26,048 bases of DNA from Verrucomicrobiota bacterium (GTDB taxonomy: Bacteria; Verrucomicrobiota; Verrucomicrobiia; Limisphaerales; JADLHS01). Of this stretch, positions 6,069-11,251 are shown in pieces. The translations under genes and the position numbers were made by a program. Under the pieces are notes generated by a model, which worked only from the letters and a program-made list of their open reading frames with translations, was not told where the DNA came from and searched no databases. Within the stretch, counting starts at the first letter, position 1. Each line of letters opens with the position of its first letter. The stretch spans positions 1-26,048 of the forward strand of contig JAYUAV010000533.1 of assembly GCA_043741175.1 (NCBI GenBank), written 5' to 3'.

Positions 6069-6356
6069 TTACTTAGCACCGAGGATGGCGTCTTTGGCCG
6101 CCTTGGCCACGCGGAACTTCACGACTCTCTTCGCTGGGATTTGAATCTGTTCGCCTGTGGCCGGATTGCGGCCAAGACGTGCTTTGCGATTTACCAACAC
6201 GAGCTTGCCGATGCCGGGCAAGGTGAAGGTGTTCTTCGCGTTTTTGTAAGCGAGCTGTGCAACAATCTCGAGGATTTCAGCCGCCTGCTTTTTTGTGAGG
6301 CCTGCCTTCTCGGCGATTTCAGCCGCCACTTGGGATTTGGACAATGCTTTTGCCAT
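6069..6356 (-). CDS. hup: HU family DNA-binding protein
   Basis: 95 aa basic protein with TLPGIGKL and RKARLGRNPATGEQIQIPAKRVVKFR arm motif. Confidence 0.95.
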   Translation of the reverse strand: MAKALSKSQVAAEIAEKAGLTKKQAAEILEIVAQLAYKNAKNTFTLPGIGKLVLVNRKARLGRNPATGEQIQIPAKRVVKFRVAKAAKDAILGAK

Positions 6357-6507
6357 AGTGTGTGATGTTGTTTGTTTGGTTTAGTTGTGCGTTTAAGTCA
6401 CTCGACTGCTGCGAATAAAAGGTTTTCGGCTTTTCCGCGCAAGCATAAATTGCATGTTTTTTCTAAGCAAACTTGTACATTTCTGTACATCCATGAATCC
6501 AGAAAAA

Positions 6508-9881: not shown

Positions 9882-10003
9882 TGAAAGCACCAACATCCAA
9901 GCACCAGAGAATCTTCAAGCTCCAATCTATCGCGGACATGACACTTTGGCCTTTGGTGTTTGGAGCTTCTCTGGGTCTTGGATGTTGGTGATTGGATGTT
10001 TCA
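9882..10003. repeat. ~120-bp imperfect palindrome built from 7-nt units (REP/MITE-like)
   Basis: CACCAACATCCAAG (9888-9901) is the exact reverse complement of 9977-9990. AAGCTCCAA pairs with TTGGAGCTT and CCAGAGAA with TTCTCTGG. Units CCAACAT/CCAAGCA/CCAGAGA and TTGGCCT/TTGGTGT/TTGGAGC. Confidence 0.8.
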
Positions 10004-10051
10004 GAAGGTTTTGCATTTAGTTCCCCGCCTTCCCCCACTACACTCCCTCCC

Positions 10052-11251
10052 GTGCCGACCGACATCAAATCCCTGACCCGCGAAGAATTGGAAGCCCAGT
10101 TCGCTGCGTGGGAACAGCCCGTCTATCGTGTGAAGCAACTCATGGACTGGCTCTACGTCCAGCGCGTGACCGATTGGGAAGCGATGACGAACCTGCCCAA
10201 ACTGCTGCGCGAAAAACTCCGGCACGATTACACGCTCGGTTCGTTGCAACTTCTCCGCAAACACGGCGCGCGCGACACCACGCAGAAATTTCTCTGGAAA
10301 CTCGCGGATCATTCGCTCATCGAAAGCGTGTTGATCCCCGCCAACCCTGCACTCTACGGCGAAGCCAGTGATCGCCACACACTCTGCGTCTCCACGCAAG
10401 TCGGCTGTGCGTATGGCTGCAAGTTCTGCGCGAGCGGCTTGGATGGTTTCAAACGCAACCTGCTCCCGCACGAAATCGTCGAACAAGTCATGGGCGTCGA
10501 GCGGTGGGCCATCCAGGAAAGCTCCAAGTTGCAAGTTGAAGGTGGCAAGTTGGAGAGTGCCGAACCTGCAACCTGCAACCTGCAACCTGCAACTTCCACC
10601 CCACGCGCCGCCTCCGGCGCAACCAGCAGCGGCTTCCCCGGCGGTCGCCTCGTGGACAACCTCGTCATCATGGGCATGGGCGAACCGCTCGCCAACTACG
10701 ACAACCTGCTCAAAGCATTGCGTCTGCTGAATTCTCCGTGGGGCGGACGCATCGGTGCGCGGAAGATCACTGTTTCCACCAGCGGCCTCGCGCCGCAAAT
10801 CCGCAAGCTCGCGGATGAGCCGGAACAATTCTCCCTCGCCATCTCGTTGCACGGCGCGACGGATGAAGTGCGTGGACGAATCATGCCGGTGAACCGCAAG
10901 TATCCGATCAAGGAACTCACCTCTGCGTTGGATTATTATCAGGCCGAACGCGGACGCATGATCACGTTTGAATACATCCTCATCAAAGGCGTGAACGATG
11001 GACTGGATCAAACCAAGCCGCTCGGCGTTCTGGCGAAACGACTCAACGCCAAGGTGAATCTGATTCCCTACAACACGGTTGAGGGATTGGAGTGGTCACG
11101 ACCAGACGAAGCCGTCTGCGAAAAATTCCTCGCCGCGATGAAGGCGCAAAAAATTGTCACCACTCTGCGCCGGGAAAAGGGACATGACATTGACGCGGCG
11201 TGTGGGCAACTAAGGTTGAAGACGGAGCGGGAGATGGTAGGGATTTTTTAA
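10052..11251 (+). CDS. rlmN: Dual-specificity 23S rRNA/tRNA adenine C2-methyltransferase RlmN (radical SAM)
   Basis: TLCVSTQVGCAYGCKFCASG (CxxxCxxC), MGMGEP, ISLH, FEYILIKGVND and IDAACGQL. Likely GTG start at 10052 (PTDIKSLT). Confidence 0.97.
   Translation: MPTDIKSLTREELEAQFAAWEQPVYRVKQLMDWLYVQRVTDWEAMTNLPKLLREKLRHDYTLGSLQLLRKHGARDTTQKFLWKLADHSLIESVLIPANPALYGEASDRHTLCVSTQVGCAYGCKFCASGLDGFKRNLLPHEIVEQVMGVERWAIQESSKLQVEGGKLESAEPATCNLQPATSTPRAASGATSSGFPGGRLVDNLVIMGMGEPLANYDNLLKALRLLNSPWGGRIGARKITVSTSGLAPQIRKLADEPEQFSLAISLHGATDEVRGRIMPVNRKYPIKELTSALDYYQAERGRMITFEYILIKGVNDGLDQTKPLGVLAKRLNAKVNLIPYNTVEGLEWSRPDEAVCEKFLAAMKAQKIVTTLRREKGHDIDAACGQLRLKTEREMVGIF
10517..10595. repeat. Heptamer-repeat palindrome inserted in-frame in rlmN
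   Basis: AAGTTGC AAGTTGA AGGTGGC AAGTTGG (10526-10553) faces (AACCTGC)x4 + AACTT (10563-10595). Confidence 0.85.

Follow-up and report, generated by a model that had tools for sequence, protein, structure and literature searches.

A heptamer-repeat DNA hairpin is translated in frame within the rlmN gene of an uncultured freshwater Verrucomicrobium

Here, we describe a DNA hairpin built from 7-nt repeats that is translated in frame inside an intact rlmN gene of an uncultured freshwater Verrucomicrobium. We give a probability of about 70% to the reading that this element belongs to a family of heptamer-periodic palindromes found throughout the lineage, and that it is passively translated in a permissive loop and in which the architecture of the DNA, and not the peptide, is conserved. 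The evidence comprises the anatomy of the hairpin, its family and its in-frame status, a tolerant protein loop with relaxed constraint on the peptide, an order-wide hot spot at the rlmN site, and the matching of the hairpin arms to one another.

RESULTS

The host gene and the anatomy of the hairpin

The window analysed is a 26,048-nt stretch of NCBI GenBank assembly GCA_043741175.1 (contig JAYUAV010000533.1, or C533). The assembly is a metagenome-assembled genome (MAG), here called G000, of 3.38 Mb, 85% completeness and 56% GC that belongs to the Pedosphaerales/Limisphaerales; the named genomes closest to it are freshwater and sediment MAGs of Verrucomicrobiota subdivision 3 that carry the label Pedosphaera or Limisphaerales. 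On the plus strand, positions 9992..11251 hold rlmN, encoding the radical-SAM 23S rRNA/tRNA A-C2 methyltransferase, as an open reading frame (ORF) of 419 codons if TTG 9992 is taken as the first. Translation more likely begins at GTG 10052, judging from the N-terminus MPTDIKSLT that this codon would yield, which is the consensus common to relatives.

The ORF matches the Pfam families Radical_SAM (PF04055) and RlmN_N (PF21016), its product matches RlmN structures of the PDB by sequence (6fz6, 3rf9, 5hr6; E 5e-74), and its predicted structure matches them by fold (Foldseek, TM-score by target 0.82-0.89). In an alignment with 39 relatives, residues C132, C139, C143, C146 and C404 as well as MGMGEP at 227-232 are invariant. 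The CX3CX2C [4Fe-4S] motif (C139, C143, C146; 10406..10429, plus strand) lies just 5' of the insert described below, and the SAM-binding motif MGMGEP (10670..10687, plus strand), at the end of strand beta2 (223-227 in the model), lies directly 3' of it. With the radical-SAM core, CX3CX2C, the RlmN N-terminal domain and two mechanistic cysteines all present, the protein belongs to the RlmN/Cfr radical-SAM enzymes; we take the two mechanistic cysteines to be the equivalents of E. coli C118 and C355. A 336-codon ORF that runs antisense through rlmN and the hairpin (10001-11011, minus strand) is spurious, an annotation trap of the type that palindromic GC-rich inserts help to create.

The hairpin itself occupies window positions 10519-10595. 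Its left arm (10519..10555, plus strand) is a degenerate array of GTTGNAG/CAAGTTG-type heptamers that is translated as SSKLQVEGGKLE. A short, unique turn follows (10556..10562, plus strand; its ends, placed from folds of both strands, are approximate), and the right arm (10563..10595, plus strand) is a perfect (AACCTGC)x4.4 array translated as PATCNLQPATS. Tandem Repeats Finder reports the right array at 10563-10593 (AACCTGC, period 7, 4.4 copies, 100% matches, score 62) and the left array at 10525-10552 (CAAGTTG, period 7, 4 copies, 71% matches). The two arrays are inverted complements of each other, with arms at 10526-10555 and 10566-10595 that are 30 nt long each, 83% complementary and spaced by 10 nt. 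The 14-mer made of two units matches five times in the window, against 0.17 matches expected from shuffles, and none of 100 shuffles reached five. A first-pass annotation of this DNA had proposed an intact rlmN with all catalytic motifs and an extra peptide encoded by a palindrome of 7-nt units; both proposals are borne out, the former by the open frame, the cysteines and the invariant MGMGEP, the latter by the tandem arrays and the inverted-repeat arms.

A second long hairpin, with CCAANNN/TTGGNNN-type arms, lies at window positions 9882-10003 between the glucan phosphorylase gene (glgP) and rlmN; with a start at GTG 10052, this palindrome falls wholly in the glgP-rlmN spacer. Rfam assigns it a sub-threshold miRNA-precursor model (27.9 bits, E 0.001), a generic hairpin signal.

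The rlmN site in relatives

A variable insert of 27-63 residues occurs at the rlmN site in all members of the genus that were searched, and most of these inserts are built from differing heptamers. A heptamer array at the site, defined as a window with at least 12/14 period-7 matches, occurs in 39 of 81 species-level genomes from the order, and 22 fold there with z < -3; about half of the orthologous sites are without a significant fold (median z -1.44), and several are without any array. For 17 of the 39 arrays, the same insert contains a stretch that matches the reverse complement of the array's own unit at 12/14 positions or more, compared with 1.4% of 1362 pairings with other units in a cross-genome control, a difference that we read as a pattern and not as a probability, related genomes being non-independent samples. 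As tandem units can be aligned in more than one register, complementarity was scored at the level of units in place of pair-by-pair covariation. At least ten different units occur at the site, each usually paired with its own complement.

The KLQVE...NLQPAT type found in G000 recurs in lineages whose RlmN is only ~70% identical, and forms the entire linker in some. Among the closest relatives, the differences resemble those of microsatellites. The right-arm unit CAACCTG of G000 reads CAACCTT in the relative L022, altered in every copy; L022 also has an extra AGTCCAA array that has grown in phase with the left arm, and L023 has lost most of the right arm. The triplet (CAACCTG)x3 is present in only 17 of 201 genomes of the order, with blooms of 37, 18 and 9 matches in three of them.

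The rlmN site is an old permissive hot spot at which a palindrome is kept at the DNA level. The idea of a recent colonisation of rlmN, raised in the first-pass annotation, does not survive this comparison, as arrays or hairpins occupy the site across the whole order. The insert is present but variable in relatives, and intergenic copies exist (see below).

In L026, L028 and L041, an extra GC-rich palindrome of non-heptamer type that encodes SLSPSDGERVAARPGEG-like peptides is nested beside the heptamer arrays at the rlmN site; thus, a second repeat family uses this hot spot.

Related changes are found in an Hsp70-like gene. In G000, an Hsp70-family gene (C368:7434-7515, equivalent to L101:965-1046) carries in frame a perfect hairpin with 27-bp arms, (GTGGTGC)x3 / (GCACCAC)x3, which probably formed or was homogenised very recently; in close relatives, this position is empty or holds different units. 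In the comparison of an Hsp70-like gene between genomes, the GGTGCGT/ACGCACC of G000 is matched in G009 by GTTGCGT/ACGCAAC, with both arms altered in a compensatory manner; the unit of G015 is unrelated, and G010, G014 and G005 have no hairpin.

The heptamer family across the genome

Is the rlmN hairpin a singular event in this genome? We counted 106 period-7 arrays in G000 (at least 3 copies, at most 1 mismatch), compared to 6 with a period of 8 and 2 with a period of 9. They fall into 43 canonical units, a few of which are dominant. According to gene calls from a simple codon-usage caller built here (2762 genes, 85% coding), 49 arrays lie >150 nt inside ORFs, and 41 of these 49 have same-frame coding potential on both flanks. 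A separate scan returned 26 hairpins with arms made of period-7 arrays, 14 of them intergenic and about seven deep in genes, where the hosts by Pfam are Hsp70, RecG, UvrC, class-III aminotransferase and molybdopterin-oxidoreductase genes. A PriA gene contains a period-7 array with a nearby complement that is 76% identical, which is under the threshold of the hairpin scan. In all of these genes, the hairpin or array is in frame.

Hairpins of the same type as that in rlmN (GTTGNAG/CAACCTN) were found in a molybdopterin oxidoreductase gene (C435:1985-2068) and at three intergenic sites (C265:1002-1081, C266:277-353 and C255:9273-9340). A proteome search for repeat-derived peptides, suggested in the first-pass annotation, led to the same oxidoreductase, whose peptide CRLQVEGSKL...NLQPSTFNLQP is nearly the same as the RlmN insert. 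When the five copies of this type are aligned, the arms and the layout agree; the loops are unrelated and the arm lengths differ.

The commonest unit, AATCGGC or AATCGCC, occurs deep within 13 genes (e.g. C275:1000-2748, C187:4027-4060 and C269:4322-4356), and all 13 arrays are oriented to read NRQSAIG / (I)GNRQSA(I). None is reversed, although the reverse orientation is free of stop codons, which points to a filter on tolerated peptides or to a link with the transcribed strand. One ORF of 2139 codons on C275 contains four arrays of this unit. On C81, a (CGTCATT)x5 array (6353-6388) coincides with or immediately precedes the N-terminus of a small prepilin-like ORF and is followed by its GFTLVEML-type hydrophobic segment. 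Many arrays near 5' ends may sit in leaders and not in coding sequence.

Could a discrete mobile element of RPE-, REP- or MITE-like kind have been transposed into rlmN and be moved in trans by a transposase or recombinase, with the periodicity as a mere property of the element? The occurrence of the same hairpin type in an unrelated gene and at three intergenic sites, its patchy distribution across the order with blooms, the many other contexts of the array in metagenomes (see below) and the unrelated-unit hairpins that close relatives carry at one site all speak in favour, but the copies share the unit type only, with neither loops nor ends conserved. A GTAG/CGTC tag is lacking, as are a target duplication and any terminal inverted repeat other than the arms themselves. 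The rlmN site, moreover, is occupied order-wide, and the closest relatives differ there by unit-wise expansion, loss and homogenisation.

No convincing association with a transposase was found either. The 85%-complete genome has four matches to the Y1 transposase (PF01797), and heptamer hairpins flank none of those that score above 50 bits; in particular, no such hairpin is near the clear Y1 genes on C45 and C416. The weak match (38.8 bits), which counts for mobility, lies in a 979-codon ORF (C266:358-3285) directly 3' of the GTTGCAG/CAACCTG-type hairpin C266:277-353. This is the sole transposase-hairpin adjacency seen in G000, and it may be a coincidence. Taken together, we regard a discrete mobile element as unlikely, and the mobility of the element as unproven. 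Of the RPE-like selfish element suggested in the first-pass annotation, the effect on the protein and the dispersed family with intergenic copies stand, and the discrete mobility is not supported, given the sharing of units only and the lack of a target duplication or tag.

Folding of the hairpin

As RNA, the hairpin folds with -38.4 kcal/mol (z -2.55) on the plus strand and with -56.1 kcal/mol (z -5.24) on the minus strand, where the fold is stronger because A.C mismatches become G.U. The minimum free energy of the whole variable region of G000 reaches a z of only -1.44, in contrast to the significant value of the hairpin alone, since the GC-rich 3' part of the region dilutes the hairpin. A search against Rfam returned no family above threshold, only sub-threshold miRNA-precursor models of the generic long-hairpin kind, and a scan of 10300-10800 found no promoter- or terminator-like sites. 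Metatranscriptome runs contain only 4-5% of the sampled words and are uninformative on expression.

We considered whether the hairpin is a selected cis-acting nucleic-acid structure with the peptide as a by-product: an mRNA stem that affects mRNA stability or that pauses the ribosome after the Fe-S motif, before the remainder of the barrel, or else an antisense RNA or a DNA array bound by proteins. Such a role would fit the order-wide retention of a hairpin at a single site, with arms that match whatever the unit, and the markedly better fold of the minus strand. This reading appears improbable, however, given that the fold is not significant at about half of the orthologous sites and the array missing from several, that the elements are also found in many unrelated genes and spacers, and that neither a promoter- or terminator-like site nor an Rfam family above threshold accompanies the hairpin. 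G.U mismatches in intragenic hairpins, besides, show no strand preference genome-wide. A strand-specific G.U signal of antisense RNA was sought in seven deep intragenic period-7 hairpins; with 12 antisense and 8 sense, we draw no conclusion from it.

The encoded loop and its constraint

In this RlmN, 56 residues separate EQV from NLVIMGMGEP, as the first-pass annotation had counted. In the alignment with 6fz6, the best homologue of solved structure, only about one residue of 6fz6 stands between query residues 173 and 216, which leaves about 42 extra residues here. This lineage-specific segment (residues 174-215; 10511..10636, plus strand), delimited by the gap in the PDB alignment and by the variable block in relatives, lies between helix alpha1 and strand beta2; it is missing from solved RlmN structures and hypervariable among relatives. 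In an AlphaFold model built with 39 relatives (mean pLDDT 80), helix alpha1 is predicted at residues 159-187, running into the residues encoded by the left arm with falling confidence; residues 188-222 are modelled as coil with a pLDDT <50 at 194-211, and strand beta2 is predicted from 223. The insert would thus be the alpha1-to-beta2 connection of the radical-SAM barrel. Going by the general architecture of such barrels, it would lie on the face away from the Fe-S/SAM site. Candidate tryptic peptides that span the junctions of the insert are LQVEGGK and LESAEPATCNLQPATSTPR.

Against the four closest relatives, dN/dS amounts to 0.41-1.13 in the insert and to 0.044-0.065 in the rest of rlmN. 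The tolerance of the loop, which the first-pass annotation had assumed, is confirmed by this roughly ten-fold difference and by the low pLDDT, and by its substitution rates the peptide is close to neutral. It is very improbable that the peptide is a selected protein feature, e.g. a flexible linker or an interaction loop specific to these bacteria. An insert of 27-63 residues with a conserved, NPGNGFPG-like C-terminal part is indeed retained throughout the genus, but the repeat-encoded part evolves at the dN/dS given above, is wholly different between relatives, is modelled as low-confidence coil and has a sequence that follows from the DNA repeat being read in three frames.

Presence of the segment in independent data

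Misassembly had been named as a possible objection from the start. That the palindrome is an artefact of assembly or binning is extremely unlikely: the perfect array does interrupt short-read contigs, and the whole 701-nt stretch is not covered by any single Logan contig, but three public runs yield error-free contigs whose overlaps span the two arms (X1, 10268-10591; X2, 10566-10876; X4, 10564-10900), and the orthologous insert is also in frame in independent MAGs of other assemblies. Such contigs are unable to reveal copy-number polymorphism. In four metagenome runs, the summed contig depth is very high and many divergent loose ends occur at 10560-10607, which indicates that the array is present in many other contexts in those metagenomes. 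Joints that skip 140-285 nt were considered as an insert-free allele and rejected; they stem from the rlmN of other organisms, with 90% likeness and unknown letters in between.

DISCUSSION

In the explanation that we favour, a heptamer element consists of an array of 7-nt units, a short unique loop and a complementary array. Its passive translation in rlmN would give a disordered peptide of about 26 residues inside the extra segment of about 42 residues, with no sequence-specific catalytic role. In this account, the arrays grow, shrink and homogenise by steps of 7 nt, in genes only net multiples of three survive, and the arms stay complementary whatever the unit. The hairpin would be an old resident of the rlmN site at the level of the order; its nearest counterparts would have been remodelled in place, and in more distant relatives, hairpins with other units would have taken its position. 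According to the best-supported reading, the element is a passive repeat at the DNA level, tolerated at a permissive position, that persists through the dynamics of its arrays and the complementarity of its arms and not through a need of RlmN. Selection for function is an alternative explanation for why a hairpin has stayed at one site throughout an order.

As the generator of such elements, we favour heptamer-specific replication slippage combined with templating from arm to arm or with ectopic conversion between hairpins, which would require no dedicated transposase. New copies and units may originate by slippage or by copying between loci. Local slippage is suggested by the in-place changes among the closest relatives and by the published idea of period-7 polymerase slippage (PMC4692102). 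Copying between loci is suggested by the limited shared vocabulary of units, the (CAACCTG)x3 blooms and the full replacement of units among close relatives. The limited vocabulary and the blooms look more like copying between loci than like purely local slippage, and a complete change of unit at one site among close relatives is hard to reach by point mutation.

We also put forward, as a tentative and rather doubtful idea, a process specific to the Pedosphaerales/Limisphaerales that seeds 7-nt arrays, duplicates them in inverted orientation and exchanges them between loci. If true, self-maintaining palindromes would hold fixed permissive sites in essential genes for as long as an order exists, and would keep rewriting the surface loops of the proteome. 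This would amount to a new class of non-transposase repeat dynamics, beyond a variant of RPE or REP.

Translated repeat hairpins are not peculiar to reduced intracellular genomes such as that of Rickettsia. They are frequent in free-living environmental Verrucomicrobiota, including essential genes (rlmN, Hsp70, recG, uvrC, priA). Their practical effects are distorted and inflated protein alignments, breaks of short-read assemblies inside genes, long spurious antisense ORFs, and inserts that can be mistaken for novel domains. An order-wide hot spot at which units turn over and arm complementarity is kept provides a natural experiment on how the dynamics of DNA repeats create and erase protein segments, and the question of why a period of 7 is favoured in some bacteria can now be tested in a second phylum.

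How does the element compare with known systems? Among long palindromes within coding sequence, Nematomorpha mitochondrial genes contain, according to the account in PMC6649704, long inverted repeats of which both arms are translated. These belong to animal mitochondria, are much longer and perfect, and do not consist of short tandem units. A MITE-like organisation, with terminal inverted repeats around a non-palindromic core and a target-site duplication, is not apparent in rlmN: the element consists of two arms and a loop of 7-10 nt, and no direct repeat is found in its flanks.

Heptameric simple sequence repeats (SSRs) such as the cyanobacterial STRR and the GGGNATC repeats of Xanthomonas and Nostoc, as covered in PMC4692102 (citing Mrazek 2007), are closer in their arrays. 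In common with them, the arrays of G000 show at least three head-to-tail copies, a genome-wide excess of period 7, inverted arrangements capable of forming stem-loops, and variation of copy number and unit at a locus between close relatives and among orthologues. Those SSRs, however, are over-represented in non-coding regions and use one G-rich unit (PMC4692102), whereas G000 has at least 43 units, at least 41 arrays translated in genes and many arrays arranged as array-loop-complement palindromes. For the Pedosphaerales, Limisphaerales or Planctomycetes, our literature search for heptamer repeats met with ecology papers only and no description of such repeats, an absence that is no proof of novelty.

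Closer in their effect on proteins are the intragenic REPs (Di Nocera et al. 2013, PMC3733652), GTAG-/CGTC-tagged palindromes that are most numerous in the verrucomicrobium Opitutus terrae. Both are small palindromes inside ORFs, often of replication or repair genes, that add 20-30 residues, and both occur in the same phylum. REPs measure 20-40 bp with a stem of 5-13 bp and a terminal GTAG or CGTC tag, the GTAG type being linked to RAYT transposases (PMC3733652); the heptamer element, by contrast, has heptamer-periodic arms of 30-33 nt, no GTAG/CGTC at either end and no RAYT link that we found. The word 'heptamer' is absent from PMC3733652.

The nearest counterpart in concept is the RPE (Ogata et al. 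2000, via PMC3733652 and PMC10969869), described in these accounts as hairpin repeats that lie between genes and in frame in many housekeeping genes. In both systems, a peptide is added to proteins that stay intact, and no dedicated transposase is known; as in an RPE, the rlmN element is an in-frame palindrome in an intact ORF with its peptide at a tolerant position. RPE families, in turn, have a conserved consensus of ~100-150 bp, whereas heptamer copies have nothing more in common than their stock of 7-nt units and an array-loop-array layout, and the five same-type copies of G000 align in the heptamer arms only, without a full-length consensus. Further differences are the microsatellite-array arms that vary in copy number and unit, the free-living Verrucomicrobium host and the occupation of one orthologous site order-wide. 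Homology to RPE-1 to RPE-8 is not expected, as both the structure of the units and the host differ. The element thus resembles the RPE and the intragenic REPs of Opitutus terrae in its effect on proteins, and is set apart from these families by the lack of a full-length consensus, of a GTAG or CGTC tag and of a RAYT link. In G000, it is a little-described cousin of the selfish palindromes of Rickettsia, and one of dozens of such repeats inside genes.
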